Origin: Dictyostelium discoideum
Lineage: Eukaryota
Direction of reading: 5' to 3'
Length of the DNA: 64,000 nucleotides
NCBI GenBank assembly: GCA_000004695.1
Contig: CM000151.3
Coordinates: forward strand, 8,096,001 to 8,160,000
Numbering within the stretch: the stretch's first letter is position 1; every line of letters begins with the position of its first letter. This document shows positions 1 through 58,059 of the stretch, in pieces. The notes below the pieces were generated by a model. The model was not told where the DNA came from. It ran no database searches and was given only the letters and a program-made list of their open reading frames with translations. The position numbers were made by a program, and so were the translations under genes.

Positions 1-118
1 TTACACATAATGGTGTTGGGTGCCAGATAGGGCACTTTTTAAAATAATTTAATTTTAAAAAAAAAAATAAAATAAAAAAATAAAAAAAATATATTATATT
101 CGACTTCAAAAAATTTCA

Positions 119-161
<43 letters not shown>

Positions 162-396
162 CATTATATTTCATAACCCTCATAAATAATATTTATTAAT
201 ACAAATCTTCTTTTTTTATTTTAATTAATTATTTAATAACTTGTAAAATATTATATATATTTTTTTATTTTAAATTTATTTATTTTTTAATTTTTTATTA
301 ATTTTAATAACCCACTCCACAAAAACCCGTTTAATAATTTCACAAAAAAAAAAAAAAAAAAAAAAAAAATATTTTATTGTGTTTGCATATAAACAA

Positions 397-427
<31 letters not shown>

Positions 428-570
428 AAAAAAAAACAATAATATTTAAGATATTTATAAAAAAAAAAAGAAAAAAAAAAACCTTCCGAATTTTATATAA
501 AGAAAAAAAAAACAATAATATTTAGATATTTATAAAAAAAAAAAAAAAAAAAACAAATAAATTAAAGAAA

Positions 571-1513
571 ATGTATAATCCACCACCACCATCCGGTTCA
601 CAAGGTAACAATAATTATTATAGACAACCATCATCCACACCCGGTGTTTCTAACCCAAATCCACAAGCTAATCAATTTTTACCACCTCCACCTTCTAATA
701 CACAAGCTCCAAGACCAGGATTTCCACCAAGTGCTCCACCACCAAGTGCCCCAGCAGGACAATACAGTATGCCACCACCACCACAACAACAGCAACAAGC
801 AGGACAATATGGTATGCCACCACCACCATCAGGTTCAGGTATAGGTACAGGTGTTTCATTAGTAAAAGATCAACAAATTTCATTAAGTAAAGAGGATCCA
901 TATCTTAGAAAATTAACAGTAGGTTTAGGTTGGGATGTAAATACAACACCAAGTGCACCATTTGATTTGGATGCAGTAGTTTTTATGTTGGGTGCAAATG
1001 GTATGGTTCGTCAACCAGCAGATTTTATTTTTTATAATAACAAACAATCTAGGGATGGTTCAATCTTTCATCATGGTGATAATTTAACAGGTGCAGGTGA
1101 TGGAGACGATGAAGTCGTATCTGTAAACTTACAAGCAGTTTCACCTGACGTTACTCGTTTGGTTTTCGCCGTCACCATTCATCAACCTGAATTAAGAAGA
1201 CAAAATTTCGGTATGGTTCCAAGAGCTTTCATTCGTATTGCAAACCAAGAAACAACTAGAAATATATGTAGATACGATCTAACCAATGAAGGTGGTACAA
1301 ATACTGCTATGATTGTTGGTGAAGTTTATCGTGATCCTCAAAATCCTCAAAATTGGTCATTTATTGCTGTTGGTAAATCTTTCCCTGGTGGTTTACAATT
1401 CCTTTGTCAAATCTTTGGTGTAAGTTATATTTATTAATTAATTTTTTTTTTTTTTTTTAATTTTATTAACAATTATTTTTTTTTTATTTATTATATAGGT
1501 AAATGCGTCATAA
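571..1513 (+). CDS. TerD-domain protein, CABP1-like (cAMP-binding protein / tellurium-resistance TerD family); exons 571..1419 and 1499..1513
   Basis: 288-aa ORF with a Pro/Gln/Gly-rich N-terminus ([18 protein letters not shown] repeats) followed by a TerD-like core ([13 protein letters not shown]...[19 protein letters not shown]...[12 protein letters not shown]). In-frame GTAAGT donor at 1420 and tatatag acceptor ending at 1498 give a C-terminus ...QIFG-VNAS*. The Dictyostelium CABP1 family is known to be TerD-related. Confidence 0.8.
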
Positions 1514-2023
1514 ATTTTTTAATTTTAATTTTTTCTTAGGCATTTTTGGCAAATTAGTTGGTTGGAATTTTCACTCATAATTTTGTATACAGATATTTTT
1601 TTTTATTCCACATAACACAATAAACAATCACTTTTTTTGTTCTAAAATTACACTTTTATTTTTTATTTTTTTATTTTTGTTTAACCCAATTTTTAACCTA
1701 CTCGTTAACGTGGGAAGATTTTTTTTTTCCCAAGTTTCCAATTGTTTTTAAAATTTTATTTTTTTATTTTTTATTTTTTTATTGATGCCCTTTCAACTCT
1801 AAACGATTTTTTTTAAAAATTCAAACAAATTTTAAATTGCCGAATCGTTTTTTCAAGATCTGATTAGGCAAGTTTTTTCCACCAAAAGAATAAAAAAAAT
1901 TTTTAAAAAGTTGGGCTAAAGATATTTTAAAATATTTTTTTTTTTTTTTTTTGCAGTTTTAATTTTTTATTATAATTTTATTTTATTATATATATTTTTC
2001 AAAGAGTATACCACTAAATTAAA

Positions 2024-2948
2024 ATGTTAAAATTTATTCAAAAAATTTCAAAATCAAGGTGTAATTTTTTATATATATTTTTAATTTTAATTTTAATTAA
2101 TTTTTCAAATCCAAAAGTAAATTCTCAAACATTAAATAAAAATGAATATGATTGTTTAAAGAGTTTGTTAACCAATTTGGGATCAATCAATAAAGTTAAA
2201 ATTAATGCAACATCTTTAGAATATTTATTTTGTGGTACAATGGAATTTTCATCACCAAATGTTCAAATATTTTGTAATGAAGGTTCAATTTCAAAACTAA
2301 ATGTAGGACAAGCTAATTTCACATATACAGTAACTGATGATTTTTCATGTTTTAAAAATATGACTGAATTATCAGTGGATGATATTGTTTATGATAAAGA
2401 TAAATTTTATAATTAATATCCTCCAAATGCAAAAGAATTTTCATTTGATGGCACTGATTTAGTTTATGGAACTATTTCACCAATTATTAAAAAATATAAC
2501 TCAATGTCAATACAAAAAATACCAACAATAATTAAATTTTCTTGGTATTTAAATACAACTAAAATGTAGGTATAAAATAAATTATTATTATAATTAAAAT
2601 TATTTTTTTTTTAATCATTTTTATTTTCCTATTTAAAAAAAAAAAAAAAGTCATATAGAACTCTTTAGTACCTTTTAAAGGATATTTTTTAGTTTCATTT
2701 GATAATGATCTTGATGGTTCAAAAATTTGGGATTGTTCTATTTTAATTCATTCTCTAAATGTTCCATCATTAAATTTTATTACAGGCGATATTTCTTTAA
2801 ATCTAATGTTAGATTACGATCAATCATCATGGGGAAATATTACAACTTTTGGAGGAATGAGATATATGTCTCTAAGAGCTTCAGATTTATCATCTTTTCC
2901 ATTAGAGTTTTCAAATTTAAGATCTGAAGTTTTAAAATCTATGTATGT

Positions 2949-2992
<44 letters not shown>

Positions 2993-5621
2993 GACAAAAA
3001 AAAAAAAAAAAAAAGATATATTGAAATACCATTTTTAGCAGTATCTTCAAAGATTGATTTATCATTAATAGGAAAATCATTAGAATCATTATCTTTTTTT
3101 CATCCAAATAATTTTACATTTGGCGGCTTATTTCCAATAATTTTACCATCCAATGAAGCATTTAAAAAATTGGAATTTGTTAATGGAAATATTGAAACAT
3201 TTGATTTTTCATTATTTACAAATGTTGAAACATTATCATTAGAAAGTAATTTAATGTCAAATGATTTTCCTTCAAGTTTCAATAGAACAATTCATAGAAA
3301 ATTAAAACACCTTGATATAAGTAATAATAAAATGACAGGTACAATTGATGATTCATTTTGTCAATTAGAAATCATTGTTACAAATAATTCAATGACAGGT
3401 TTAATTCCAACTTGTTTTACATGTTTCTTTGGATTACCAGAAATAAATTTAGAAAGATATTTTATTGGAAATAATTTTATAAATTTAAATACACCTTCTT
3501 CACCATGTAAGTGTTTTATTTTTTATTTTTTATTTTTTATTTTTTATTTTTTATTTTTTTTTTTTAATTTGTTTTTTTTTACTAATTCCATTTATGATAT
3601 ATATATATATTTGTATTTAAGCAATTATCATTCCAAATATAGTTTTTAATAATACTTCAATTATTGAGGGTATTCCAATAGTTTTTTATGAATATTTAAT
3701 ATTTGGTGAAAATTTAGGTGGTAGTTGGGTTCCATTTACAGCTGTCTCTGATTCTGTAGGAACACCAATGATTTTTTCAATGATTGAGTCAAATAGTTTA
3801 TTTAAAGTATTTTGCTATGGAGAGCCCAAGTTTCCTTTAAACTTATCATACAGTAAGTCTAACCCAAACTATACATTTACTTTATCATTGGGAATACCAC
3901 CAATATTAAATTTAGTAGATTGGCAATCAAGTACAACTGATTTAGTAATAGATGGTTCATTCTTTACATATAATGGTTCTATAATTAATATTACAATTGG
4001 TAATGAAAATTGTTTCGTTACAAATACAAATTTTTATCAAATTAAATGTAAACTTTCAAATGTTATAGATCAATCATTAGAGGATATTATATCATATATT
4101 ACAATTGGTAATTTTAAAACTCAATTCACTTTAAATCCAGGTGTAATAAATACAATTTTAAATTGTACTGAAAATTATAATGATTGTAATGGTAATGGTA
4201 ATTGTTTATCTGATATTGGTAAATGTAAATGTGATTCAACTCATCAAGGTGATGATTGCTCAATCCCATATATAGAATGTTTAAATGATTGTAATAATGT
4301 TGGTCAATGTAATAATCAAACTGGTATTTGTTCATGCCCAATCACTCCTTACGAATGGATTGGTATTGATTGTTCAATTCCATTACATACAATATCAGCA
4401 GTTTCACCAAGTGATACCAATGGTGGTAGTGCTTCGATTTATGGTTGGTTTAGTAATAATCATACTGATCCACAAGTTTTCATTGGTAATAAACAATGTA
4501 TACCAATTTTTAGTATATCTGAAAGTGAAATTATTTGTAAAGCACCACCAGGTACAGGTTTAAAATCAGTAAGTGTAATTCAAAATTCAATCAATGTAAC
4601 ATCAAAAGATATTTATCAATATTATTCAAATGATAAACAATGTCCAAATCATTGTACATCGACATCAAATGGTATTTGTAATACAACAACTGGATATTGT
4701 AATTGTATCGGGAGATGGAGCGGTTATGATTGTAGTTTATATTCAAATCCAAGTGGTGGCGATAATAATAGTGGAATACCAGGATCAAATACAACAATAG
4801 ATGGTAATACTGGTAATACAAACATTACAAATCAACAAACAAATTATCAAATTTTAATTACAAAATTAATAGAGATAGATTTCAATGGTAATCAAATCAA
4901 TGAATATCTTTTATTAAATAAATGGTCAATAATTTCAAATATTAGTAAAACAGTTTACACATTCATTCAATCAATTCAAAATGATATATGTAATATTACA
5001 TATACAATTGAAGAAGTTAATAAAGATAGAGATGTATCATTTGCAGGTATTAATTTTAAATTAACAAGTGGATCAGTTAAAATGACAGTATCAATTGAAA
5101 ATTATCAATATTCAAGTAATTTAAATACATTACAATTACAAATGAAATCAAGTGTAAATGAAATTCAAACAAATAATGAAATGAATGATTGTAACGATGA
5201 TCAAATTGAAATTGATAGTACACCGAACCAAGATAATTCATTAAATTATATAACAATTAAAAAAGATGCAAAAGTTTTAAATGGTAGATTTATAGACAGA
5301 ATCGAAAGTGATGGTATATCAACATTTATGCAAACTGTGTTAGTATCAAAATCAAATGATTCAATTACAGTTGGTATGAATTTACCTCATTGTACAAAGA
5401 AATGTTTATTAGATCCTGACTTCTCTGTATTGATTAGTCCTGAATTCATTGATGAATGTGATGATAATAATCGTGAGTCATGGTTTTTACCAGTTGTGAT
5501 CGCTGTTCCAGTTGGAGGTCTAGCTGCAATTATTGCTATTGTTTTCATAATTTACAAAAAAAGATTTGTTGAAGCCCCATTAAAAAGAAAATTAAAATCA
5601 CTTAGAAATTATAAAAATTAA
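2024..5621 (+). pseudogene. Paralog A of an LRR / EGF-like / IPT-TIG single-pass membrane protein family; apparently disrupted; exons approx 2024..2565, ~2659/2693..2942, 3016..3506, 3622..5621
   Basis: Same four-exon architecture as the intact paralog C at 10401..13993, with near-identical nucleotide sequence in exons 1-4. TCA->TAA in exon 1 (2414..2416; C has aattCatatcc, A has aattAatatcc). A 1-nt insertion just after the predicted exon-2 acceptor creates an in-frame TAG (2656..2658). Exons 3-4 are fully open: signal peptide, LRR-like NxL repeats, CxCDSTHQGDDCS EGF-like, ISAVSPSDTNGGSASIYGWF IPT/TIG, TM LPVVIAVPVGGLAAIIAIVFIIY. Confidence 0.5.
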
Positions 5622-5941
5622 AATTGAAAATAAAAAAAGAAATAAAAAATAAAAATATCTAACCCAGGCATCTATAAAGTATAAAAAAAAAAAAAATAGT
5701 GGAAATAAAAAAAAAAAAAAAAAAAAGGTTTATATTAGAACAGATCCGAGCTGTGTTTAAAAAAAAAAAACTTTTTAATATTCAAAAGGTTTTAAAAAAA
5801 AAAAAATGGAAAAAATCAAAAAAAAAAAGAAAAAACAATGATGATTTTTTGTTTAAAAAAAAAAAACGTCTTTCCCAAACATAGATTTGTTTTCCAATAA
5901 ATTTCAAAACTAAAAAACAAAAACCCGAAAAGACACTCTTA

Positions 5942-6019
5942 TTTTTTTTATTTAATATCTTTTAAATTTTTATTCATTACGTAATGAATAAAAATTTAAA
6001 AGATATTAAATAAAAAAAA
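5942..6019. repeat. Perfect 78-bp palindrome (two 39-bp inverted arms, centre tac|gta at 5980/5981)
   Basis: Left arm 5942..5980 is the exact reverse complement of 5981..6019 (...ttaatatcttttaaatttttattcattacgtaatgaataaaaatttaaaagatattaa...). Flanked by a second imperfect inverted pair (aaacgtctttc at 5866 / gaaaagacgttt at 6046). Confidence 0.9.
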
Positions 6020-6197
6020 ATACGTAATTCAAATAAAATTTTGAAAAGACGTTTTTTTTTTTTTATTTTTGATCAATTAAATATATCATAATAATAATAA
6101 TAATAATAATATTAAATAATATTAAAAATAAATAAATAAAAATATAAAATAAAAAAAAAATAATTTTAAAAATAGTTAATTATTAAAAAAAAAGTAA

Positions 6198-7156
6198 ATG
6201 AAAAAATCTAAATCATTGATTTTTTATTTTTTTTTTATTTTTTTTTTATCTATTCAAGTAAATTCAAATGAATTAAATAAAAAAGAATATGATTGTTTGG
6301 TAAACTTTTTAACAAATTTGGGAAAAATATCAAATGTTGGTAAAAATGAAAAAACATTTGAATATGAATTTTGTAATCCCTTTTTTGTTTCATTACCAAC
6401 CGAAATAAAATGTAATCAAGGTTCAATCACTTATTTAGATACTGTTCAGTCAAATATTAGCTATATAATTAAAGATGAATTATTATGTTTTGATAATATT
6501 AATTATTTTTTACTTTCAAATATTAATTATGATAGTGCCATATTTTTCAATTCTTTCCCAAAGAGTTTAAATAAAGTTATTTTGACTGGAACGAATTTAC
6601 AATTTTCCAAAGTTACAAAAGATCTTCAAACGTTATCGATATCAATTATTTCTCAAAAAATTCCAACTACATTAAAATTTTCTTGGTTTTATAAAACTAC
6701 TCAATTGTATGTATTTATTAAATTTTTAAAAAGTTAAAAATTTGTATTAATTAAATATTAAATTGTTTTTTTGAAAAAAAAAAAAAATAAAAATAAAAAA
6801 AAAAAATAAAAAAAAAAAAAAAAATAAAAAAAAAAAAAAAAAAAAAAAATTAGTATTTTATCATCTACAAGTTTTTCAAGCAATAAAACACATTCAATAG
6901 CATTTGAAAATGATCTTAAAGATTCTGAAATTTGGGAAACTAATTACTTTAATATTATTTCATTAAATTTGCCAAAATTTAATAATGTTAAAGGATTTGT
7001 TCAAATCGAGTTAATAGAAGGATATAATCAAACTTCGTGGTCTAATATTAAAGAGATTGGGAATGTAACAAATATCTATATTAGAACAAATGATTTAACA
7101 GAATTTCCAAATGATCATCTATCAAATATCAGGTCTGATTCGATAGAGAAAATGTA

Positions 7157-7195
<39 letters not shown>

Positions 7196-9854
7196 ATATT
7201 AAATTAAACATTTAATTTTTTTTATTACTTAGAAATTTTGAAGTTCCGTTTAAATCTGTTAAAAAAATGTGCGATTTATCATCAATAGGTAAATCAATTC
7301 AAATTATTTCCTTTTCAAAATGTGGTAGAGATTTTTCATTTAATGGTTTAATGCCAATAATTTTACCAAATAACCAAGATTTTCAATATTTTTTTTTAAT
7401 TGGTGGCTATATTAAGAATTTTGATATTTTGCAATATAAAAGTGCTGAATATATTACATTAAGCAATAATTTGATGTCTGGTACCTTACCTTCAATTAAT
7501 AGTTTTAAATTCGGTAAATTAAAATATATTGATATTGGTTTTAATTTAATAACAGGTGAATTGGATGACTCATATTGTGAATTTGATATTATTGTAAACA
7601 ATAACTCAATGACTGGATTAATTCCAACCTGTTTTACATGTTTCTTTGGACTAACTGAATTAAATTTAAAATCGAGATTCATTGGTAATAATTTTACAAA
7701 TTTAGATCAACCTTCATCTCCATGTAAGTTGAAGTAGTATTTTTTAACTTTTTTTTAAAATTAAAAAGATTGAATAAATTTGAAAAAAAATTACTGACTA
7801 TATTTTATTTATAATAATAAAGCAATTATTTCACCAAATTTGATTTTCTCAAATATTGAAATATTTCAAGGTCAACCTCATTATAAATATTATATCTTTG
7901 GTGAAAATTTAGGTGGGGCTTGGATTGATGAATCAAATGCAGAGATTATTGGCTTTGATGTGAAATTTAGGGTAATAAAACCAAATAAACTAATATCACT
8001 TTACTCTCTTTCATCATTTTCTAGTATTGTAACATTTTCATATAGTAGAATAAATTCAAATTATAGATTTACTTTATCAGCAGATTTAATAACACCAAAA
8101 TTAATAAAGGTTGAATGGGTTAGTAATTCTCAAGATTTAGCTTTTGAAGGTTTTTATTTTTCCTATAATAAATCAATAATTAACATTTCAATTGGTGATG
8201 TTAATTGTCAAGTTACAAGTAGTACTTTTTATAATATTAACTGTACTCTTTTGGCACCAATAGATCTTACTTTAATTGATATTGTATCATTTATAACAGT
8301 TGGTAATTTAACAACTCAGTTCACTTTAAATCCAGGTGTTACAAATAATTTACTATATTGTATTAATGGATGTGGTGGAAATGGAATTTGTTTTTCCGAT
8401 ATTGGTAAATGTAAATGTGATTCGACTCATCAAGGTGATGATTGTTCATTACCATATATTGAATGTCCAATTAATTGTACCAATTTAAGTGTATGTAATA
8501 ATGTAACTGGTGAATGTTCATGTCCATCATTCTTAATTTGGAGCGGTATTGATTGCTCATTTCCATTACATACAATATCTGCAGTTTCACCAAGTGATAT
8601 CAATGGTGGTAGTGCTTCAATTTATGGTTGGTTTGGTAATATTCATAATGACCCACAAGTTTTCATTGGTACTAAACAATGTATACCAATTTATAATATA
8701 TCTGAAAGTGAAATTATTTGTAAAGCACCACCAGGTACAGGTTTAAAATCAGTAAGTGTAATTCAAAATTCAATCAATGTGACATCAAAAGATATTTATC
8801 AATATTATTCAAATGATAAACAATGTCCAAATCATTGTACATCGACATCAAATGGCATTTGTAATACAACAACTGGATATTGTAATTGTATTGGAAGATG
8901 GAGCGGTTATGATTGTAGTTTATATTCTAATCCAAGTGGCGGTGGCGATAATAGTGGTGGATTACCAGGATCTAATACAACAATAGATGGTAATACTGGT
9001 AATACAAATATTACACTGGTAATACAAATATTACAAATCAACACACAAATTATCAAATTTTAATTACAAAATTAATAGAGATAGATTTCAATGGTAATCA
9101 AATCAATGAATATCTATTATTAAATAAATGGTCAATAATTTCGAATATTAGTAAAACAGTTTACACATTCAATCAATCAATTCAAAATGATAAATGTAAT
9201 ATCACATATACAATTGAAGAAGTTAATAAAGATAGAGATGTATCATTTGCGGGTATTAATTTTAAATTAACAAGTGGATCAGTTAAAATGACAGTATCAA
9301 TTGAAAATTATCAATATTCAAGTAATTTAAATACATTACAATTACAAATGAAATCAAGTGTAAATGAAATTCAAATAAATCATGAAATGAATGATTGTAA
9401 CAATGATCAAATTGAAATCAATAATACACCAAATCAATATAATTCATTAAATTATATAACAATTAAAAAAGATGCAAAAGTTTTAAATGGTAGATTTATA
9501 GACAGAATCGAAAGTGATGGTATATCAACATTTATGCAAACTGTATTAGTATCAAAATCAAATGACTCAATTACAGTTGGTATGAATTTACCTCATTGTA
9601 CAAAGAAATGTTTATTAGATCCTGATTTCTCTGTATTGGTTAGTCCTGAATTCGTTGATGAATGTGATAATGATCGAAAATCCTTTTTTTTACCAGTTGT
9701 TATAGTGGTTCCTATTGTTTTTTTAATTTTAATAATTATTTTTGTAGTTATTACTATAAAAAAAAGATATGTTGAGATGTATTTATTTAAATCAAAAATA
9801 AAACAATTGGCAAACTTAAAAAATATTAAAATAAATAAAAAAACAGAATTATAA
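6198..9854 (+). pseudogene. Paralog B of the LRR/EGF/IPT-TIG membrane protein family; frameshifted in exon 4; exons approx 6198..6706, 6854..7153, 7233..7723, 7823..9854
   Basis: Exon junctions are phase-consistent (TT|GTATGT...ag|T; AT|GTAAGT...ag|A; T|GTAAGT...ag|CA). A 20-bp tandem duplication (ACTGGTAATACAAATATTAC x2 at 8995..9034), absent from paralogs A and C, shifts the frame so translation terminates at 9061..9063. The downstream 9064..9854 (IPT/TIG, TM, tail) remains open only in the +2 frame. The N-terminal exons are much more diverged from A/C than A and C are from each other. Confidence 0.55.
8995..9034 (+). repeat. 20-bp x2 tandem duplication causing the frameshift in paralog B
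   Basis: ACTGGTAATACAAATATTAC occurs twice consecutively here, but once at the homologous positions in paralogs A (~4803) and C (~13177). Confidence 0.85.
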
Positions 9855-10400
9855 TAAATAAAAATTTGATTAACAGGATTCATTTTAAAAAATTTTTAAA
9901 TATCTTCCAAACAAATCCAAATATCCATTTTCTTTTTTTTAAAAACAAATCAACACTGAAAATTCTTAAGTTTGTACGGCCGTACACAAAGTAATTTTAT
10001 GCACACCTATTTTACCTTTATTTTCCCTTTATTTTTACATTTTTTTTTTTTTGGTGAATTTTTTAGAAAAAAAAAAAAAAGAAATAAAAAAAACGAAAAA
10101 AAAAAATCAAACACCGCAATTACCTTCCGGCAAAACATTAAAATAAAAAAATAAAAATAAGATATTTTTTTTTAATATTTTCATTTTTGTGTCTGTTCGG
10201 TGTTTCAACCAAAATTTTAATCTATTAATCGTTTTGTTTAAAAAAAAAAAAAATGTTAAAATGTTGGGAAAAAGTTTTTTTTTTTTTTTTTTTAATTTTA
10301 ATTTATTTTATTTTATAATAATTTTATTTATTTTATTTATTTTATTTAATTTTAATTAATTTTATTTTATTTATTTTTCAAAATATATCTCCAAATTAAA

Positions 10401-11337
10401 ATGTTGAATTTTATTCAAAAAATTTCAAAATCTGGGTGTAATTTTTTTTATTTATTTTTAATTTTAATTTTAATTAATTTTTCAAATCCAAAAGTAAATT
10501 CTCAAACATTAAATAAAAATGAATATGATTGTTTAAAGAGTTTGTTAACAAATTTGGGATCAATCAATAAAGTTAAAATTAATACAACATCTTTAGAATA
10601 TTTATTTTGTGGTACATTGGAATTTCTATCACCAAATGTTAAAATATTTTGTAATGAAGGTTCAATTTCAAAATTAAGTGTAGGACAAGCTAATTTCACA
10701 TATACAGTAACTGATGATTTTTCATGTTTTAAAAATATGACTAATTTATCTGTTGATAATATTGTTTATGATAAAGATAAATTTTATAATTCATATCCTC
10801 CAAATGCAAAAGAATTTTCATTTGATGGCACTGATTTAGTTTATGGAACTATTTCACCAATTATTAAAATTTTTGACTCAATGTCAATACAAAATATACC
10901 AACAATAATTAAATTTTCTTGGTATTTAAATACAACTAAAATGTAAGTTTAAAATTAATTATTATTATTATTATTTTAATGAATACTAATAAAATTTTTT
11001 TTTTTATCATTTTTATTTTTCCTATTTAAAAAAAAAAAAGTGTAATAGCCTCTTTCGTACCTTTTAAAGGATATTTTTTAGTTTCATTTGATAATGATCT
11101 TGATGGTTCAAAAATTTGGGATTGTTCTATTTTAATTCATTCTCTAAATGTTCCATCATTAAATTTTATTACAGGTGAAATTACTTTAAATCTAATGTTA
11201 GATTACGATCAATCATCATGGGGAAATATTACAACTTTTGGAGGAATGAGATATATGTCTCTAATATCTTCAAATTTATCATATTTTCCATTAGAATTTT
11301 CAAATTTAAGATCTGAAGTTTTAAAATCTATGTATGT

Positions 11338-11380
<43 letters not shown>

Positions 11381-13993
11381 CAAAAAAAAAAAAAAAAGAT
11401 TTATTGAAATACCATTTTTAGCAGTATCTTCAAAAATTGATTTATCATTAATAGGAAAATCATTAGAATCATTATATTTTTTTCATCCAAATAATTTTAC
11501 ATTTGGTGGTTTATTTCCAATAATTTTACCATCAAATGAAGCATTTAAAAAATTGGAATTTGTTTATGGAAATATTGAAATATTAGATCTTTCATTATTT
11601 ACAAATGTTGAAACATTATCATTAAAATGTAATTTAATGTCCAATGGTTTTCCTTCAAGTTTCAATAGAACAATTCATAGAAAATTAAAACACATTGATA
11701 TAAGCAATAATAGTATTACAGGTACAATTGATGATTCATTTTGTCAATTGGAAATCATTGTTACAAATAATTCAATGACAGGTTTAATTCCAACTTGTTT
11801 TACATGTTTCTTTGGATTACCAGAAATAAATTTAGAAAGATATTTTATTGGAAATAATTTTATAAATTTAAATACACCTTCTTCACCATGTAAGTGTTTT
11901 ATTTTTTATTTTTTATTTTTTATTTTTTTATTTTAATTTGTTTTTTTTTACTAATTCCATTTATGATATATATATATATTTGTATTTAAGCAATTATCAT
12001 TCCAAATATAGTTTTTAATAATACTTCAATTATTGAGGGTTCAATAGTTTTTTATGAATATTTAATATTTGGTGAAAATTTAGGTGGTAGTTGGGTTCCA
12101 TTTACAGCTGTCTCTGATTCTGTAGGAACACCAATGATTATTTCAATGATTGAGCCAAATAGTTTATTTAAATTATTTTGCAATGGAGAGCCCAAGTTTC
12201 CTTTAAACTTATCATACAGTAAGTCTAACCCAAACTATACATTTACTTTATCATTGGGAATACCACCAATATTAAATTTAGTAGATTGGCAATCAAGTAC
12301 AACTGATTTAGTAATAGATGGTTCATTCTTTACATATAATAGTTCTATAATTAATATTACAATTGGTAATGAAAATTGTTTGGTTACAAATACAAATTTT
12401 TATCAAATTAAATGTACACTTTCAAATGTTATAGATCAATCATTAGAGGATATTATATCATATATTACAAATGGTAATTTAATAACTCAATTCACTTTAA
12501 ATCCAGGTGTAATAAATACAATTTTAAATTGTACTGAAAATTATAATGATTGTAATGGTAATGGATATTGTTTATCTGATATTGGTAAATGTAAATGTGA
12601 TCCAACCCATCAAGGTGGTGATTGCTCTTTGCCATATATAGAATGTTTAAATGATTGTAATAATGTTGGTCAATGTAATAATCAAACTGGTATTTGCTCG
12701 TGTCCAATCTCTCCTTATGAATGGAGTGGTATTGATTGTTCAATTCCATTACATACAATATCTGCAGTTTCACCAAGTGATACCAATGGTGGTAGCGCTT
12801 CAATTTATGGTTGGTTTAGTAATAATCATACTTATCTACAAGTTTTCATTGGTAATAAACAATGTATACCAATTTATAATATATCTAAAAGTGAAATTAT
12901 TTGTAAAGCACCACCAAGTACAGGTTTAAAATCAGTTAGTGTAATTCAAAATTCAATCAATGTAACATCAAAAGATATTTATCAATATTATTCAAATGAT
13001 AAACAATGTCCAAATCATTGTACATCGACATCAAATGGCATTTGTAATACAACAACTGGATATTGTAATTGTATTGGAAGATGGAGCGGTTATGATTGTA
13101 GTTTATATTCAAATCCAAGTGGTGGTGGCGATAATAGTGGTGGATTACCAGGATCAAATACAACAATAGATGGTAATACTGGTAATACAAATATTACAAA
13201 TCAACAAACAAATTATCAAATTTTAATTACAAAATTAATAGAGATAGATTTCAATGGTAATCAAATCAATGAATATCTATTATTAAATAAATGGTCAATA
13301 ATTTCAAATATTAGTAAAACAGTTTACACATTCATTCAATCAATTCAAAATGATAAATGTAATATCACATATACAATTGATGAAATTAATAAAGATAGAG
13401 ACACAACTTTCGCAGGTATTAATTTTAAATTAACAAGTGGATCAGTTAAAATGACAGTATCAATTGAAAACTATCAATATTCAAGTAATTTAAATACATT
13501 ACAATTACAAATGAAATCAAGTGTAAATGAAATTCAAACAAATAATGAAAATGATTGTAACAATGATCAAATTGAAATCAATAATACACCAAATCAAGAT
13601 AATTCATTAAATTATATGACAATTAAAAAAGATGCAAAAGTTTTAAATGGTAGATTTATAGACAGAATCGAAAGTGATGGTATATCAACATTTATGCAAA
13701 CTGTGTTAGTATCAAAATCAAATGATTCAATTACAGTTGGTATGAATTTACCTCATTGTACAAAGAAATGTTTATTAGATCCTGATTTCTCTGTATTGGT
13801 TAGTCCTGAATTCGTTGATGAATGTGGTGGTGATAATGATCGAAAATCCTGGTTTTTACCAGTTGTTATAGTGGTTCCTATTGTTTTTTTAACCTTAATA
13901 ATTATTTTTGTAGTTATTACTATAAAAAAAAGATTTGTTGAGATGTATTTATTTAAATCAAAAATAAAACAATTGGCAAACTTAAATAAATAA
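10401..13993 (+). CDS. Paralog C (intact) of the LRR / EGF-like / IPT-TIG type-I membrane protein family; exons 10401..10942, 11041..11331, 11399..11889, 11991..13993
   Basis: Signal peptide (MLNFIQKISKSGCNFFYLFLILILINFSNPKVNSQ). Cys-containing N-terminal domain. LRR-like repeats (LSLKCNLMSNGFPSSFNRTIHRKLKHIDISNNSITGTIDDSFCQLEIIVTNNSMTGLIPTCF). Two EGF-like modules (CNGNGYCLSDIGKCKCDPTHQGGDCSLPYIECLNDCNNVGQCNNQTGICSCP). IPT/TIG-like module (ISAVSPSDTNGGSASIYGWF...ICKAPPSTGLKSVSV). C-terminal TM (LPVVIVVPIVFLTLIIIFVVITI) and short basic tail. Donors ATG|GTAAGT, AT|GTATGT, T|GTAAGT with phase-consistent acceptors. Confidence 0.7.
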
Positions 13994-14956
13994 AAACAAA
14001 AAACAGAATTACAAATAAAAGTAAAAAAAAAAAAAAAAAAAATTTTTAATTAAATTGTTTATTTTATTGACATAAAAGGTTAAATCACATAAATATTTAT
14101 TCTCTTTTTATTTGTGTTGATTTTGTAAAGCAATCTTCAAAAAATGCATTGAAAATAGGTAAAAAATGATGTTTTCGAAATGATGTTGTGTCCAATTGGG
14201 TTGGGTGATAATTTAAATTTGCATACAAAAAAAAAAAAAAAAAAAAAAAAGAAAAAAAAAATTGCAACACCTGATTTGTAATTTACCAACAAAATAAGTA
14301 GTCAAAAACCTGGAAAATAGAAAAGAAGGAGGAAATAAAATAAAAAAATAAATAAAAAAAAAAAATAAAAAAATAAAAAAATAAAAAGGCATGAAACAGT
14401 GCAGTGGTTTGAAAATAATTTCTTTTTTTTTAATTTTATTTTTTCAAAACAGTAAAATTTTTATTTTTTTTTTTATTTTTTTTTAATAAAACGCTTAACA
14501 AAAAAAAAAAAAAAATCAAGCATTGTTTTTTTTTTATCCCCACCAACACATCATCAAAAAAACACATAAAACTGATATAAAAAATTTTAAAAAAAAAAAA
14601 ATTATTTTTAATATTTACACCGCACAACTATTTATAGTTCACATTAAACAAAAATAAAAAAATAAATAAAAATAAAAATAAAAAAATAAAAATAAAAAAA
14701 ATAAAAAACAAAAAAAAATAAAAAAATAAATTAAAAAAAAAAAAAAAGAAAAAAAAAACACACAGATAACCCGGGGTCTTTTATTTTTTCTTTTTTTCTG
14801 TTGTCAATCATAATTTGTAAAAAATAAAAAATAAAAATAAACACACACACACAACGAATTTTATTAATCATATAAATTATTTATAACAAAAAAAAAGCTT
14901 TTTTTTTTTTTTTTTTTTTATCAAACAATAATAAATTAATAAAACAATAATAAAAA

Positions 14957-15113
14957 ATGGATCCATTGTCAATATCAATGGAGAGTAAAGTTGTATTATT
15001 AGGTAGTTCAGATGTTGGGAAAACTGCTCTATCACTTCGTTATGTTGATGGAATATTTCCTAAACGTTTAACTTCAACAATAGGAGCATCCTTTTTAACG
15101 CGGACAATGTATG

Positions 15114-15172
<59 letters not shown>

Positions 15173-16037
15173 ATATTCTCAACACTGTTTTGAAAATAAA
15201 AATAAAAAATAAAAAATAAAAAATAAAAAATCTCATTACTTACAATTGTCACACACAATAATTTTTAAAAAAAAAATAATAATAATCATAATAATGTGAA
15301 AATACTTTTAGAAATATAGAAGGAAATAAAATTAAATATCTAATATGGGATAGTGCTGGACAAGATAGATTTCGAAGTTTAGCTACACTTTATTATCGTG
15401 GTGCATGTGTTGCAATTTTAGTATTTGATATAACTCAACAAAAAACATTTGATATAGTTAAAGGATGGGTTGAAGAATTAAAAGCAAATATTCAAGAAGA
15501 AATTAGTAAGTATATATAATGTATATATATTAATGTATATATATATATTAATTATTTATACTTTATAATTTTTTTTTTTTTTTTTTTTCAAAAATTAATT
15601 AATTAATAATAGTAATGGTATTATGTGGAAATAAAATTGATTTAGAACAAAATAGACAAGTTAAAAGTGAGACAGCAAAATTATATGCAGATGAAATTAA
15701 TGCAATGTATGTTGAAACCTCTGCAAAAGAGAATGAAGGTGTTGAAGGAATGTTTTTAGAGATTGGAAAGAAATTAATATTAAATAAACATAATGAATAC
15801 TTTAAACAATTTCAACAACAACAAAAACTTCATAAACAATTCCAACAACAAAATCAAAGCTTATATCAATATCATATACAACAACAAAAACATCAACAAC
15901 AACAACAACAACAACAACAACAAATTTTTAAAAATCAACAATTTTATAATAATGGTCATCTTCAAGGCAGTATAAATGGTCATAATAATCAAAATTCAAC
16001 AAATTATAGTGATAATAGTGATCAATGTTGTGGTTAA
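14957..16037 (+). CDS. Rab-family small GTPase with a poly-Gln C-terminal extension; exons 14957..15108, 15312..15505, 15613..16037
   Basis: G1 GSSDVGKT, switch II WDSAGQDRF, YYRGA, G4 GNKIDL, G5 ETSAK. C-terminus ...DQCCG* (double-Cys prenylation-type tail). Introns AT|GTATGT...tttag|A and A|GTAAGT...aatag|TA. Q-rich insert ([10 protein letters not shown]) before the tail. Confidence 0.85.
15113..15175. repeat. (AAAT)n microsatellite (about 15 units) inside Rab intron 1
   Basis: aaataaataaataaat... run directly visible in the sequence. Confidence 0.9.
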
Positions 16038-16402
16038 CTTTTAGATATATTAAAAAACAAAAAAAACAAAAAAACTAAAACAAAAAACAAAAAACAAAAA
16101 CAAAAACAAAAACAAAAAACAAAAAGGGTGATATTAAAATAAACATGTATAAAAAAAGAAAAAACTTGTAAAAAAAAAGAAATAATATTATATTTTAATT
16201 TATTATTTATATGGAAATGCGTATTAAAACTACTAATTTAGATTTAATTTTAATTTCAAACACTTTTACAAATACGGAAGGAAATAAAATATTTAAGATT
16301 TGGAAAAGAAAATTTCCAAGTTTTCAAAAACTTTCTTTTTTTTTTTTTTAAAAAATTTTTTCTTTATTTTTTTTTATTTTTTTTTTATTATTATAATTTA
16401 AT

Positions 16403-16426
<24 letters not shown>

Positions 16427-16434
<8 letters not shown>

Positions 16435-17998
16435 AAAAATCATGACTATTAATAACAGATGAATAATGATTTTCATTACCTTGAAGTGAGATATTATGAT
16501 AAGCGAATTCACCATGTTCGACGAGATCGAGACCTAATTCTTCTTCAGATTCATCGATTTTAACACCGATAGTGGCATCGATAATCTTTAAGAGGACCCA
16601 AGTCCAAGCGGCAGCCCAAACAGCGACAGAAACGACACCGAGTAATTGAGTACCAATTAATTTTGGATTACCATAGAAAGCACCATTTGCACCATTTGGA
16701 TTAACAGAGAGTTCAGCACAGAAACCAATTGCCAATGAACCAATAATACCAGTTAAACCATGTACAGAGCTAACGTCTAAAGCATCATCGATGTGAAGTT
16801 TATGTTTTAATAATACAACGGAATAGTAAGAAGCTAAACCTAAACAAATACCCAACCCAATTGAATATTGACTATTGATATAACCAGATGCTGGTGTGAT
16901 ACCTGCTAAACCTGCAATAACACCATTGATAACCGATACAGTATTTGGTTTTCCTTTGGCGGCAGAAAGGATGATCCAAACAATAGCTGAAAAACTACCA
17001 CCAATTTGTGTGCTTGCTACTGCTGATGTTGCAATATTACCTGCTGCTAATGCACTACCTGCATTAAAACCAAACCAACCCATCCATAATAATGCTGCTC
17101 CAATTGTTGCTAATGGTAAATTTGATGGTGGGAATTCACCACCATATTTTTCAAAATCTTTTCTTCTACCAACATCTAAAATAATTAATAATAATAAATA
17201 ATATATTAATATTTATTTATTTTATTTATTTATTTATTTATTTATTATAAAATAATAATAACTTACATAATGCAATAACTAAAGCACTAACACCAGCACT
17301 TGTATGAATAACAATACCACCAGCAAAATCTAAAACACCAAAATATTTATGTAACCAACCACCACCCCAAATCCAATGAGCAACTGGATAGAAAACAATA
17401 ATTTCCCAAGCAACGGTGAGTGCGATGAATGCTTTGAATTTAACTCTTTCTGCGAATGCACCAGTCATCAATAATGGTGTAATATTTGCAAACATCATCA
17501 TAAAGAATGCATAAGCTGCTGCTGGAATATTTGGTGCATTTGGTGAACAATCGTCATATGAAACATTAATTAAAAATGCATGATCTAAATTACCAATAAT
17601 ACCTTTCTATAAATTTTAAAATAAAATAAAATATAAAAAGTTAATAAAATTAGATAAAATAATATAAAAACAATTATATATATATAAATACATACTTGAT
17701 CTGGGCCAAAAGTTAATGAATAACCAAATGCTTGCCACATGACAGTTAAAACTACAATACCAGACATAATTTGTGTGATAATTGAAAGTGTATTTTTACT
17801 TCTTAAGAGACCTGCTTCAAAGAATGCGAGTGCAGGCATCATACCTAATACTAAAATAGTTGAAAGTAAAACCCATGTTGTATTACCTGGATCTGGTGCT
17901 ACTTGATTTGCACAATCAAGATATTTTTGAACAACTGATGATGATGAACCGTTTGTTATTTCGGCTGCAACACCTTTTATTATTTCTCCTGCTACCAT
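16427..17998 (-). CDS. Ammonium transporter (Amt/MEP/Rh family); exons (minus strand) 17998..17696, 17606..17267, 17175..16427
   Basis: Amt signatures DFAGGIVIHTSAGVSALV and LLWMGWFGFNAGSALAA, with about 11 predicted TM helices. Donors Q|GTATGT (phase 0) and TTAT|GTAAGT (phase 1), with acceptors tttatag|AAAGGT and ttattttag|AT, restore ...IALYVGRRKDFEKYGGEFPPSN. About 463 aa in total. Confidence 0.85.
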
Positions 17999-18404
17999 TA
18001 TTATATTACTTATTACTTATTATTATTGGTCTTTTTTTTTTTTTTTTGTTTTTTTTCTAAAATTTTTTATTTTATTTTTTTTATTTTATTTTTTTATTTT
18101 ATTTTTTTATTTTATTTTTTATTTATATATTTATATATACACCCTAAGTTCTATTTTAAAAATAAAAAAAATAAAAAAAATAAAAAAATAAAAATAAATA
18201 GATTTAAATCTTTTTAGGCCTAAAAAAGTATAATTAAATTTTTATTTTTTATTTTTTTTTTTTTGTTTGGGGTGTCGAAAAAAAAAAAAACAAAACAAAA
18301 AAAAAAAAAAAAATTAAAAAAATTAAAATTGTTATCCCTGGGTGTTTTTTTTTTAAACAGGGTAAGGAGGGGGATATTTTGAAAACAACAATTTTTTTTT
18401 TTGT

Positions 18405-18560
18405 TTTTTTTTTTAATTTATTTTTATTTTTGTTTTTTTTTTTTTTGAATTGGTACCAAATTATTCCGTCAAAAATGATATCGCCCACCATACTGCCGAA
18501 TTTTGAATGAAAAAAAAAAAATATCTTCATTTTAATTACAACAAAAAAATACACACCAAA
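18405..18560. repeat. About 155-bp non-coding element, copy 1 (homologous to 24325..24480)
   Basis: tttttaatttatttttatttttgtttttttttttttgaattggtaccaaattattcc... is about 75-80% identical to 24331.. tttaattttatttttatttttgttttttttcgaattggtgccaaattattttt..., continuing through a shared ...aaaaatgata/aaaattgatg ... atcttc/atcttt segment. Confidence 0.6.
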
Positions 18561-18748
18561 ACAAAAAAAAAATGTTATAACTAATAGTTAATTTATTATT
18601 ATAATAATTATTATAAATTTTTTATTTTTTTTTAATTTTATTAATAAAATCAAAAATTTCTTGGGGAAATGAACCAAAAAAAAAAAAAAAAAAAAAAAAT
18701 ATAAAAATAAATTAATAAATAAAAAAAAGAGACTCTTTTCGCATCTTT

Positions 18749-19443
18749 TTGATAAACAAAATGAAATTTTTTTTTTTTTTATTCATCAAAATTTCATTTC
18801 ACAAATCTCAAAACATGAAAGATATAAGTTTACCAAAATATTTACACATTGATATTTTAAAACCAATAATTGATTATTTATTAACAAATAATAATAAAAT
18901 AAATTATGATAATAATAATAATAATAACAATAAATACATAATTAAAAACTATTATTTATATATAAATGAAATAATTAAATTATCATTAGTATCAAATCAT
19001 TGGTATCAAATAATATCAAATTTAATAATATCAAATTTAATATCAAATAATATTTTAGAGGAATGGTTCGATTTATATAGTGATTATTTACCAGAGGAGG
19101 AGAATGTTAATAAAGGAATTAATTTTATAGCATATGATTTTAATAAAATTTATGATGTTTATTTAACTCAATCAAATTTTAAAATGAAAGTTAATCAACA
19201 ATATTCAATTATCAAAATTAATCAATCAGTTATTGAAGATTATTTCAGAAATCAAGTACTATGTATTTATGATTTAACATATGAAAAATTATTACAACTC
19301 AGTAAATTAGAAACAGAAGGTAATTTAAAGTATAGAAAGATTATATCAAAAAATCCCTACTCTAAAGATGGTTTTAAAAATTTATTTTTAGAGGGTGGAA
19401 TTGCAAAAGGTATTGAAAAGAATGGTTTACTTGATATATCATC

Positions 19444-19540
<97 letters not shown>

Positions 19541-25119: not shown

Positions 25120-25152
<33 letters not shown>

Positions 25153-28192: not shown

Positions 28193-28236
<44 letters not shown>

Positions 28237-56463: not shown

Positions 56464-58059
56464 ATGATTTCAATTTTTAAAATCCTATCATCACCAAAAC
56501 CAGCAACAACAACAACAAATATTATTAACCCAATAAATATAATAAATGGAATAAGATATTTTTCGAGTAATCAAGAAGATTATCCATTATTTAAAAAACC
56601 AGTATTTAATGGTAAAGTTTTGAGAGGTGGTAGAAAAGTTTTTAAAAATGATTTAATTTATTCAAAAAAAGAATCTCATTATAATAATAATAATAATAGT
56701 AATAATAATAGTAATAATAATAATAATAATAATAATAGTAATAATAGAAATAATAATAATTTCAGCAATAATAGAAATAATAATAATAATAGAAATAATA
56801 ATAATAATAATAGTAATAGAAATAATAATAATAGTAATGATAATAATTTTAGAAATAATAATAATAATAATAGAAGAACTGAATATTATAAAAATGATTT
56901 TGATAGTTCAAAATATATTTCAAATAAACCAGAGATTAGAATTTTTGATTTACATGAACAAGCAGTTTATGGTATAAATCCAGTTTGGGTTGCATTGTCA
57001 TCTGGAAATAGAACATTTAATGCATTATATGTTTGTGGTACATTATTACCAAAATTAAAAGAATTGGGTATTGATATTAAAAATATTGAAAATTCAAAAA
57101 GAGAATATATTTCTGATTTTGATCATAACTATGGTAGAGAAACAAACCAAATAGAGGATGAAAATCAAGATGAACAATATTCAAATCAACATGATGAACA
57201 AGAACAAAATGAATATGAGGAAGAACAAGAAGAAGAAAAAGTACAAGAAGAAGAAGAGGATAATAATAATAATAATAATATTAAAAAAACAACATTTAAT
57301 AGATACAATGATAGAAAGAATTTAGTAGCATTAAAAGAAATTGTTAAAAATTCATTTAAACTTAAAATACCAGTTAGATCAGTTAATAAGGGTACTTTGG
57401 ATTCATTTTCGAAGGGTAGACCACATCAAGGTATAATTTTAGATGCATCACCATTGACTTTATTAAATATCGACTTTTTAGAGAAATTCGATATAAATGA
57501 AAGAGTGAATAAAAGAATGAATGGTGGTGGTGGTGGTGGTGGTGGTGGTGGTGGTAATAAGATTAACAATGATAAATATCCATTATGGTTAGTATTGGAC
57601 GAATTATGGGATCCACAAAATGTAGGTGCAATAATTAGAAATTGTAGTTTCTTTAATATCGATGGTGTGGTAATTTCAAATAAGAATTCAAGTCCTATAA
57701 CACCGGCAGCTTCAAAATCAAGTTCTGGGGCATGTGAAAGTTTTGTAATTAATCGTACAGAGTCAATTGAAGGTTTCTTAAAATCAAGTCAAAGAAATGG
57801 TTGGAATGTAGTTGGTACATCTTTAGATGACTTGAATGAAAACCAACCATGTCTTGATATTAATCAAATTAAATTAGATCAACCAACAATCCTCATACTT
57901 GGTAATGAAGGTTTTGGTTTAAAACCTTCAGTTTTAGAAATTTGTAATAAAACTATAAAAATCGTTGGTGGTAATTATAAAATTGATTCTTTAAATGTTT
58001 CTGTAACTTCTGGTATTTTAATTCATACATTATTATCATCTGGAACATTACCAAAATAA
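56464..58059 (+). CDS. SpoU/TrmH-family 2'-O-ribose RNA methyltransferase, MRM1-like (mitochondrial rRNA methyltransferase)
   Basis: C-terminal SPOUT motifs [71 protein letters not shown]. Presequence-like N-terminus. Long Asn-rich linker and a Gly11 run. Confidence 0.75.
   Translation: [531 protein letters not shown]

Follow-up and report, generated by a model that had tools for sequence, protein, structure and literature searches.

Two of three neighbouring surface-protein genes in Dictyostelium discoideum carry small lesions in their reading frames, and the question raised by this locus is which of these lesions are real, how many intact copies the array holds and by which processes the three genes have been shaped. 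The stretch of DNA analysed here, referred to as the window, is 64,000 nucleotides long and belongs to chromosome 2 of strain AX4, with exact AX4 protein matches for two of its ORFs, mgm101 and DDB_G0277473. In a preliminary description made from the letters of the window it was proposed that three surface-protein paralogs form a tandem array here, with small and recent-looking lesions, and that only one copy is intact. The array and all of its lesions were found again (Table 1). That only one copy is intact was seen to be true for the window version of the sequence only, as the first gene is complete in a second assembly.

The array and its family

The array is a tandem trio of genes coding for ComC-type cell-surface proteins and had already been annotated. 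All three genes, here named A, B and C, are read in the same direction (+) and are bordered by a TerD-domain gene on one side and by an Arf-like and ammonium-transporter pair on the other. In the AX2 annotation the three were merged into a single protein of 3150 aa.

Table 1. Features of the ComC-type array, in positions of the window
Feature	Position	Strand	Details
Gene A, ComC-family paralog	2024..5621	+	exons 2024-2565, 2651-2942, 3016-3506, 3622-5621; homologous to C exons
In-frame TAA, exon 1 of A, codon 131	2414..2416	+	frame of the ATG at 2024
One surplus A, exon 2 of A	2659..2660	+	GAACTC vs GACTC
Gene B, DDB_G0277555	6198..9854	+	exons 6198-6706, 6854-7153, 7233-7723, 7823-9854; AX4 record P0046/XP_642642 maps here; Pfam ComC architecture
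Perfect 20-bp tandem duplication, exon 4 of B	8995..9034	+	unit ACTGGTAATACAAATATTAC at 8995..9014 and 9015..9034
62-nt "intron" of the AX4 model of B, skipping the frameshift	9019..9080	+	P0046 reads GNTNITL/IDFNG
TT in the window, GG elsewhere	9685..9686	+	KSFF vs conserved KSWF, directly ahead of the TM segment of B
Gene C, DDB_G0277557, intact	10401..13993	+	exons 10401-10942, 11041-11331, 11399-11889, 11991-13993
Homogenised EGF-TIG-EGF-supersandwich tract	12554..13874	+	C coordinates; similar blastn blocks: A, about 3956-5656; B, about 8153-9865
Switch point of the C chimera	13866..14027	+	blastn block ends, sliding window, tail identity

The paralogs encode type I membrane proteins built of a signal peptide, a ComC-type LRR, beta-sandwiches, EGF, one TIG, EGF, a ComC supersandwich, a TM segment and a short tail. 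In Pfam searches the ComC_SSD profile (PF22933) was matched over its whole length (1-222 of 222) with 330.9 bits in C, 340.5 in A and 353.3 in the repaired B (cut-off 24), the LRR_ComC profile (PF24141) over 1-288 of 288 with 51.5, 62.1 and 79.5 bits (cut-off 27), and Beta-sand_ComC_2nd (PF24143) with 33.7, 31.2 and 39.0 bits (cut-off 27). Matches to TIG (31.3 bits, cut-off 20.9, residues 697-771) and EGF_2 (26.9 bits, cut-off 22.1) were obtained in C, and each protein has a single TIG with EGF modules on either side. When the translations were inspected by eye, a hydrophobic N-terminus was seen, as was the TM segment FLPVVIVVPIVFLTLIIIFVVITIKKR followed by about 20 residues. LRR, EGF and IPT/TIG membrane proteins had been expected at this locus and were found, together with ComC-specific domains that had not been named; A, B and C are ComC-family proteins.

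The comC gene, which is restricted to group 4, codes for a protein with EGF domains, a signal peptide and a TM segment, and its mutants aggregate aberrantly (PMC4931340, PMC2873529). The order of domains in A, B and C is the same as in ComC and in the ComC-like "EGF-like domain-containing proteins" of group 4 Dictyostelia. The three are nevertheless paralogs and not comC itself; their match to LRR_ComC is modest (51-80 bits), and they differ from comC in lying in a multi-copy cluster with conversion and one frameshifted member. By analogy with comC, the proteins may have a role in developmental cell-cell signalling or adhesion. In a literature search by gene ID, DDB_G0277555 was mentioned only in passing and without functional data, and expression or functional data for A, B and C were not found.

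At least five ComC-family genes lie within about 45 kb of chromosome 2. One of them, DDB_G0277431, is located 24 kb upstream of the array on the opposite strand and has the same architecture with an A-type tail. Compared with A and C, it has 92-98% amino-acid identity in the EGF/TIG and supersandwich parts, while its LRR and beta-sandwich head is just 46-54% identical. The genes next to it are retroelement genes and a permease gene, and not members of the family.

Gene conversion and chimera formation

Gene C was said to be fully open with consistent splice sites, and this was confirmed: its four exons are all open, its introns (98, 67 and 101 nt; 90-92% A+T) are of the GT..AG type, and its product of 1108 aa is identical to XP_642643.1 / Q54ZJ9. 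Genes A and C share 94.2% nucleotide identity across 3.6 kb, introns included. Among A, B, C and DDB_G0277431 the tract coding for EGF-TIG-EGF and the supersandwich is 85-99% identical, as against 45-65% upstream of it, and dS is 0.07-0.22 within the tract as against 0.64-0.76 upstream. Through gene conversion, the paralogs have been made uniform in their 3' halves.

Gene C is also a chimera of A and B. It resembles A from a point some 100 bp upstream of its ATG to about position 13866, whereas its TM segment, its tail and the first 30 nt of its 3' flank are B-like, and the tail of C is 91% identical to that of B and 59% to that of A. The same arrangement of an A-like body and a B-like tail was found in the gene at the position of C in CR116C, a lineage that has all three genes in the order A-B-C. 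Neither the conversion of the 3' half nor the chimeric nature of C had been noticed in the preliminary description.

A comparison among lineages had been proposed there, along with birth-and-death turnover of the family. Turnover was borne out by differences in copy number and by gene fragments across sister lineages, as in the locus of M4B/S6B type, which holds a 448-aa fragment, an A-like gene and a B-like gene and no C. The values of dN/dS are 0.4-0.6 and not above 1. Between C and its CR116C ortholog, in a comparison that covered one or two lineages, dN/dS is 0.41 and the amino-acid identity of the head is about 85-90%. In the beta-sandwich, positive selection was also considered, with 11 non-synonymous and 0 synonymous differences between A and C; against an expected share of about 22% synonymous sites this gives P ~0.065, and no claim is made.

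Nature of the lesions in genes A and B

The lesions were compared with a second assembly (GCA_054883475.1, here L004), an independent de novo assembly from Nanopore and Illumina data, which over positions 1-20000 of the window is colinear with it at 99.78% identity, has no structural change and differs in points and homopolymers only. By elimination we infer that L004 is the sister laboratory strain AX2-214, as it is near-identical to AX4 and the other assemblies labelled D. discoideum are about 92% identical here. The assembly set includes AX2-214, and AX2 and AX4 were stated by the authors to be 99.5% identical at the tgrBC locus (PMC12745789).

Gene A is interrupted twice in the window. At the site of codon 131 paralog C, the AX2-type assembly and outgroup lineages all read TCA, and base 2415, which is an A in the window, is a C in L004, L002 and L003. 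Exon 2 of A (2651..2942) has 292 nt and that of C has 291 nt; the frame coming from exon 1, shifted by the extra base, ends at a TAA (2676..2678), and the downstream frame, traced backwards, is blocked by a TAG (2656..2658). Both the nonsense codon and the 1-nt insertion had thus been described correctly, but the TAG is not created by the insertion, since it is present in the intact allele also and is merely brought into frame. No combination of nearby GT..AG sites in the window gave an open model of gene A. In L004 the gene has TCA at 2414..2416, lacks the extra A at 2659 and is open, with 1107 aa; reverting both lesions in the window gave a protein identical to this copy and, in Pfam, the full ComC architecture. 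The intact state in L004 was not borrowed from paralog C, because A-specific flanking bases are kept there, and mis-polishing of the AX2-type assembly by reads of paralog C was ruled out, as 2651-2670 has the A-specific bases and not the C sequence. An exact-ORF look-up in the Logan assemblies, using the 130-aa truncated ORF of exon 1 and the 617-aa ORF of exon 4, gave no match, and a search with full-length C yielded no fragment derived from Logan. A lesion repeated in an independent sequence of the same lineage, by which a unitary pseudogene is recognised, was not seen for A. Between A and C dN/dS is 0.45 overall, and in the whole family it is 0.4-0.6, which leaves no contrast by which relaxed constraint could be measured.

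The distribution of the differences between the two assemblies bears on the origin of these lesions. Across 60 kb, 17 of the 23 non-homopolymer differences have a neighbour within 250 bp (simulation p < 5e-5); three fall inside gene A in a stretch of 245 bp (2415, 2579 and 2659), and tight window-specific clusters occur in intergenic DNA as well (18238-18357, 25120-25129 and 34968-34972). Where non-homopolymer differences could be polarised the derived state lay in the window at eight out of nine sites, and no transition was found among these. The nuclear mutation rate was determined to be 2.9e-11 per site per generation (PMC3466296), a rate so low that two derivatives of NC4 could not plausibly differ by about ten real substitutions in 20 kb. 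Given the clustering, the derived state in the window at eight of nine sites without transitions and a number of changes too high for the mutation rate, the lesions of A are most likely errors of the reference and less likely private mutations of AX4. It counts against random error that both changes are disabling, which is somewhat surprising, as a random substitution leads to a stop a few percent of the time.

A less probable reading, which still deserves serious weight, is that all three lesions are real in AX4, gene A having been hit in the AX3/AX4 lineage after the split from AX2, and that AX4 has one intact copy. The lesions do stand in the reference sequence, and A, unlike B and C, has no protein record in AX4, which may perhaps reflect a pseudogene call by a curator. 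Coding differences between the assemblies are concentrated in the ComC array, with none in the remaining genes between 18 and 39 kb and a further cluster in a coding ORF at 56474-56608, and this concentration could represent real events in a recombination-prone locus. AX3 was, in addition, obtained after chemical mutagenesis. With nitrosoguanidine G:C to A:T transitions are expected, and this agent was ruled out as the source of the AX4-specific changes, as such transitions number 0 among the window-derived changes. Three changes in 245 bp of A would also be very unlikely at a rate of 2.9e-11, and with like clusters in intergenic DNA, low-quality read stretches fit better than mutation. As the lesions of A are probably errors, the trio in its real form probably has A and C intact and B frameshifted.

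The 20-bp duplication in B, which was proposed to frameshift exon 4, was found in two independent assemblies, the window and L004, and is absent from all other copies in the window, L001, L003 and L004; in other lineages the B orthologs (P0049, P0048 and P0012) are open through the region. For this gene the lesion is repeated in an independent sequence of the same lineage, as in a unitary pseudogene, and the frameshift of B is the only inactivation in the trio verified by a second assembly. It leads to 14 out-of-frame residues and a stop at 9061..9063, leaving a truncated product of 846 residues that has no TM segment and has lost the greater part of the supersandwich domain, and the deletion of one copy of the 20-mer restored a frame of 1103 aa. 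A separate change in B, the tandem double transversion at 9685..9686, is specific to the reference; the AX2-type assembly and every paralog and ortholog have GG at this site.

It seems improbable that B is functional through removal of the interval 9019..9080 by splicing, giving an in-frame protein minus 15 residues. The interval does end in GT..AG, the duplication itself providing a GTAATA donor right after CTG, and the shortened protein keeps its match to ComC_SSD at 323 bits. However, its A+T content of 82% is closer to that of exons (74-80%) than to that of the six real introns of B and C (87-95%), and the skip lowers the ComC_SSD score from 353 bits by dropping, from inside the match, 15 residues (NQHTNYQILITKLIE) that are conserved in all paralogs and orthologs. 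The frameshift is bypassed differently in the AX2 annotation (TIDGNT/EIDFNG), and two bypasses by two pipelines are typical of predictors that force an open frame; in the same AX4 model the conserved tail is swapped for flank-derived sequence. The "intron" is thus probably a prediction artefact.

A collapse or mis-assembly of repeats as the source of the array or its lesions, which the preliminary description had also considered, is hardly credible: paralogs 87-94% identical over kilobases are risky for shotgun assembly and some base differences inside the array are reference-specific, but the long-read assembly L004 refutes it by reproducing the three genes, spacers and flanks colinearly, CR116C shares the A-B-C order, and no paralog has the bases that the reference shows at 2415 and 2659, so that these are not from mixed paralog reads.

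The explanation that we favour, with a probability of roughly two in three, is that of a ComC cluster with conversion and a chimera, in which B alone is truly frameshifted and the lesions of A are errors of the reference. According to it, duplication and unequal exchange would have given rise to a gene C with an A-type body and a B-type TM segment and tail, gene conversion keeps the membrane-proximal EGF-TIG-EGF-supersandwich half near-identical while the LRR/beta-sandwich head diverges, and genes within the cluster are occasionally inactivated. In the NC4-derived laboratory lineage the one verified inactivation is a slippage-type 20-bp tandem duplication in B, and the nonsense codon and +1 frameshift of A, peculiar to the AX4 reference, would most likely be consensus errors of the Sanger era, made where the sequence was of low quality over a short distance.

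Related systems and meaning of the locus

A role in allorecognition was also suggested for the array. Like A, B and C, the Tgr proteins (TgrB1/TgrC1) are developmentally relevant type I surface proteins with IPT/TIG domains, and their clusters are rich in duplicates, fragments and pseudogenes, with recombination among the copies (PMC12745789). Tgr proteins are, however, defined by TIG repeats, whereas A-C have one TIG and no Tgr-type architecture; with LRR, beta-sandwich, EGF and supersandwich making up the rest, Tgr membership was ruled out by domain content, and the suggestion was not upheld for what is a ComC-type family. The tgrBC locus lies on chromosome 3 and consists of divergent tgrB/tgrC pairs (PMC12745789), while A-C lie on chromosome 2 in tandem and on the same strand. 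The orthologs of A-C diverge by 5-10%, with dN/dS of about 0.4.

In the tandem clusters of LRR receptor-like genes in plants, such as tomato Cf/Hcr9, the N-terminal LRR is variable and the membrane-proximal part is conserved via sequence exchange, and the arrays hold chimeric genes and pseudogenes. Tomato Cf/Hcr9 and the ComC array are alike in evolutionary mode only; lineage and domain set are unrelated, and pathogen recognition is not known here.

Conversion and turnover were observed in the ComC cluster. A wider reading, which we regard as doubtful, is that the cluster might be a modular receptor repertoire, with a membrane-proximal stalk (EGF-TIG-EGF-supersandwich) held uniform by conversion, an LRR/beta-sandwich head that diversifies among paralogs as well as strains and a strain-variable number of functional copies, and might act in social amoebae as a second, non-Tgr system of partner or kin discrimination or of adhesion specificity; the role in recognition is pure conjecture. 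The strain variation cited for such a repertoire consists of the strain-specific frameshift of B, the lack of a gene C in the lineage of M4B/S6B type and the occurrence of gene fragments.

For the reference of this model organism the locus is a point of curation. Gene A appears to be a real ComC-family gene of 1107 aa, which the AX4 protein set lacks on account of two bases that are probably wrong, and DDB_G0277555 (B) owes its intact state in the annotation solely to an intron introduced ad hoc and a C-terminus that is an artefact, so that the present models would mislead knockouts, proteomics and family phylogenies. Such half-homogenised genes are familiar from other tandem receptor families and are an ordinary finding, which opens no long-standing question; the locus provides a clean and small case in which one half of a receptor gene is in concerted evolution and the other half is diverging.

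Three tandem genes of the ComC family

The three same-strand genes of the array (A, B and C) belong to the ComC family. C matched the Pfam models ComC_SSD (331 bits), LRR_ComC (51.5), Beta-sand_ComC_2nd (33.7), TIG (31.3) and EGF_2 (26.9), all above the curated cut-offs, and the same models were matched by A and B. The four-exon model of C, whose GT..AG introns measure 98, 67 and 101 nt with an A+T content of 90-92% (G+C across the window is 19-31%), encodes 1108 aa and is exactly DDB_G0277557 (XP_642643.1, Q54ZJ9). B is DDB_G0277555 (XP_642642.1, 1113 aa), the neighbouring record, and no AX4 protein record was found for A. Neither the genes nor the family is new. These are the only three members in the window; the AX2-type contig shows a further one, oppositely oriented, some 2 kb ahead of the window start, and DDB_G0277431, likewise on the opposite strand, is 24 kb upstream of A.

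The comC product, which carries EGF domains, a signal peptide and a transmembrane (TM) segment, is found in group 4 dictyostelids only (PMC4931340), and comC mutants aggregate aberrantly (PMC2873529). A role in allorecognition, raised as a possibility in the preliminary description, found no support, the ComC-family proteins A, B and C having one TIG domain only and not being members of the Tgr family. The dN/dS was 0.4-0.6 throughout, which is elevated and not a sign of positive selection. In the beta-sandwich, the most similar part of A and C, codons 446-620 held 0 synonymous and 11 non-synonymous differences, a pattern that is suggestive and not significant against neutrality (P ~0.065 by our own arithmetic).

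Two single-exon ORFs elsewhere in the window were letter-for-letter identical to the AX4 chromosome 2 proteins mgm101 (XP_642651.1) and DDB_G0277473 (XP_642667.1). Two adjoining long ORFs, mutual paralogs, form a second tandem pair; they are annotated as 663 and 637 aa in the AX2-type assembly, gave no Pfam hit and have orthologs in CR116C that are likewise paired.

Features of the window and their positions
Feature	Position	Strand	Detail
Gene A	2024..5621		ATG at 2024
In-frame TAA of A	2414..2416
Exon 2 of A	2651..2942
TAG in A	2656..2658		downstream frame
Extra A in exon 2 of A	2659/2660
Stop in A after insertion	2676..2678		exon 1 frame
A/C segment of codons 446-620	~3640-4160 / 12000-12530
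A stretch identical to DDB_G0277431	~5350-5500		C coordinates 13725-13874
Palindrome in A-B spacer	5942-6019		78 nt, 39 + 39 nt
Outer arms of inverted repeat	5855-5879 / 6039-6063
Gene B	6198..9854		stop 9852-9854
Tandem 20-mer of B	8995..9014, 9015..9034
AX4 bypass of B	9019..9080		62 nt, GT..AG
TT in B	9685-9686		GG in AX2-type
3' flank in AX4 model of B	~9780-10000
Gene C	10401..13993
Exons of C	10401-10942, 11041-11331, 11399-11889, 11991-13993
A-like to B-like switch in C	near 13866
Paralogous ORF pair	18749-20806, 21341-23332
Indel against AX2-type	28170-28199		30 nt
tRNA-Ala (AGC), single gene	45487-45559	+
531-aa ORF	56464..58059
Clusters of non-homopolymer differences	2415/2579/2659, 18238/18337/18357, 25120/25129, 34968/34972, 55613/55617, 56474-56608

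Lesions of gene A and the reference sequence

The lesions described earlier for A and B are all present in the window sequence, and C is open. The TAA of A is in frame with its ATG and stands where C has TCA. Exon 2 of A exceeds that of C by one base, after which the exon 1 frame runs into a stop, and the correct downstream frame, followed backwards, hits a TAG. Since this TAG is also found in the intact A allele, the insertion, which is real in the window, exposes the TAG and does not create it as had been thought. None of the splice-site combinations tried near the lesions opens A.

The second assembly, GCA_054883475.1, is one of those built de novo from Nanopore and Illumina data by Holland et al. 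for one laboratory strain, AX2-214, and nine wild isolates (PMC12745789); in that work AX2 and AX4 were 99.5% identical at the tgrBC locus (PMC12745789). Its array region (L004) aligned over window 1-20000 with 99.78% identity and without rearrangement, which refutes a collapsed or mis-assembled repeat. Identity to the window in this region was no more than 88-94% for the CR116C-type (labelled D. discoideum) and M4B/S6B-type (labelled cf. discoideum) loci, and because of this L004 is by elimination taken to be AX2-214. Base by base, L004 has C at 2415, lacks the extra A at 2659 and has T at 2579 in intron 1 of A. In L004 A is open, with 1107 aa and homologous splice sites, and with no more than 2415 and 2659 changed back, the window encodes an identical protein. 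The A part of KAM9946533.1 (3150 aa), annotated in this assembly, reads NSY and IHIDSLVPF, with neither stop nor frameshift. This record merges A, B and C by splicing over both intergenic spacers (L004 6001-17945, window 2024-13993), a three-gene fusion that is an annotation artefact. The other differences over 1-20000 were a few intergenic substitutions, differences in homopolymer length, and a TT in B in place of the GG that L004 shares with every paralog and ortholog, so that Phe replaces the conserved Trp immediately ahead of the TM segment. This tandem double transversion, which lengthens a T run, is probably a reference error.

AX2 and AX4 are both descendants of NC4. With this shared descent and a measured nuclear mutation rate of 2.9e-11 per site per generation (PMC3466296), some ten substitutions in 20 kb cannot be spontaneous divergence. 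When polarised with the M4B/S6B-type and CR116C-type loci, the window held the derived state at eight of the nine informative non-homopolymer differences from L004; as assembly errors would show as derived states, the errors, if errors, lie in the reference. There were no transitions among the window-derived changes, one of which was a tandem GG to TT extending a T run. The comparison was widened to 18-39 kb and 40-61 kb, and 17 of 23 non-homopolymer differences had a neighbour at most 250 bp away (simulation p < 5e-5), a tight clustering that is the mark of short low-quality stretches and not of mutation. We therefore favour reference errors as the source of the lesions of A, with a probability of roughly 0.7. 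That they are real changes private to AX4 seems unlikely. Nitrosoguanidine causes mainly G:C to A:T changes, and window-derived changes without transitions do not fit such an origin. Mis-polishing of AX2 at A by paralog C is excluded, since the AX2 sequence near 2659 retains A-specific bases. Under either reading of its lesions A is not an old pseudogene.

The densest cluster in 60 kb holds five substitutions in 135 bp, AX4 reference against AX2-type, at the start of a 531-aa ORF. A 30-nt indel and many homopolymer-length differences in intergenic A/T runs also separate the two.

The frameshift of gene B and its annotated bypass

A perfect tandem 20-mer in B cuts the product after 846 residues, and once one copy is removed the gene is open over 1103 aa and its splice sites are homologous. 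The duplication is identical in the window and in L004 and occurs in no other copy; it is thus corroborated by a second assembly and lineage-specific, and one copy of the array is truly broken. The B orthologs of CR116C (P0049), of a genome with the ACTFIW locus-tag prefix, presumably OT3A (P0048), and of the M4B/S6B type (P0012) read straight through GNTGNTNITNQ.TNYQIL. As the duplicated unit adjoins the native near-repeat GGTAATAC-TGGTAATAC, it likely arose by replication slippage.

The AX4 model of B stays open by excising a segment that is 82% A+T, against 87-95% in six genuine introns, and the AX2 annotation chose a different bypass. The AX4 excision removes NQHTNYQILITKLIE, which is conserved in all copies, and in the same model the conserved tail MYLFKSKIKQLANL is replaced by translated 3' flank sequence. 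The AX4 bypass is regarded as a prediction artefact, and on that view B is a pseudogene or else, should its transcript be stable, gives rise to a truncated ectodomain that is secreted. The DDB_G0277555 model ends IIIINKNLINRIHFKKF...RPYTK, from the 3' flank past a predicted intron; the genomic frame of B runs on into the conserved tail MYLFKSKIKQLANLKNI.

The A-B spacer carries a perfect palindrome without a spacer, identical in the AX2-type assembly and nested in an inverted repeat that is longer and imperfect. Its left arm is conserved in the loci of CR116C type and M4B/S6B type, but the right arm there is only partly complementary, so that the perfect form is peculiar to the NC4 lineage.

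Homogenised 3' halves and turnover of the family

A and C share 94.2% nucleotide identity over 3.6 kb, introns and about 100 bp upstream included. B and DDB_G0277431 share with A/C only 43-54% amino-acid identity over the LRR and beta-sandwich head, against 85-98% over the EGF to supersandwich part. In the head, the dS of C against B and DDB_G0277431 was 0.64-0.76; over EGF, TIG and supersandwich it was 0.07-0.22, much as between C and its CR116C ortholog (0.10-0.13). Since purifying selection on the protein leaves dS unlowered, these values indicate that gene conversion, or partial replacement in repeated rounds, has homogenised the 3' half. A-type TM segments and tails are found in A and DDB_G0277431 and B-type ones in B and C; within C, A-like sequence gives way to B-like, and as the same chimera is found at position C in CR116C, it is older than that split.

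Just before the TM segment, a 150-bp alignment window showed no difference between A and DDB_G0277431, and in the kilobase ahead of it their identity was 95-98%; as the two genes are on opposite strands and 24 kb separates them, a recent conversion between inverted copies is implied.

The M4B/S6B-type locus holds a 448-aa fragment, one A-like and one B-like gene, and no C, and many family members and fragments occur on consecutive locus tags in other genomes. Given the conversion, the C chimera, the copy differences and the fragments, the family as a whole does turn over, through duplication, unequal exchange, conversion and decay. The picture of a dynamic tandem family with one broken copy therefore holds, and that of an array with only one intact copy probably stems from two wrong bases in a reference of the 2002 era. 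Of use here are corrections to the annotation and a neat example of concerted evolution in one half of a gene.
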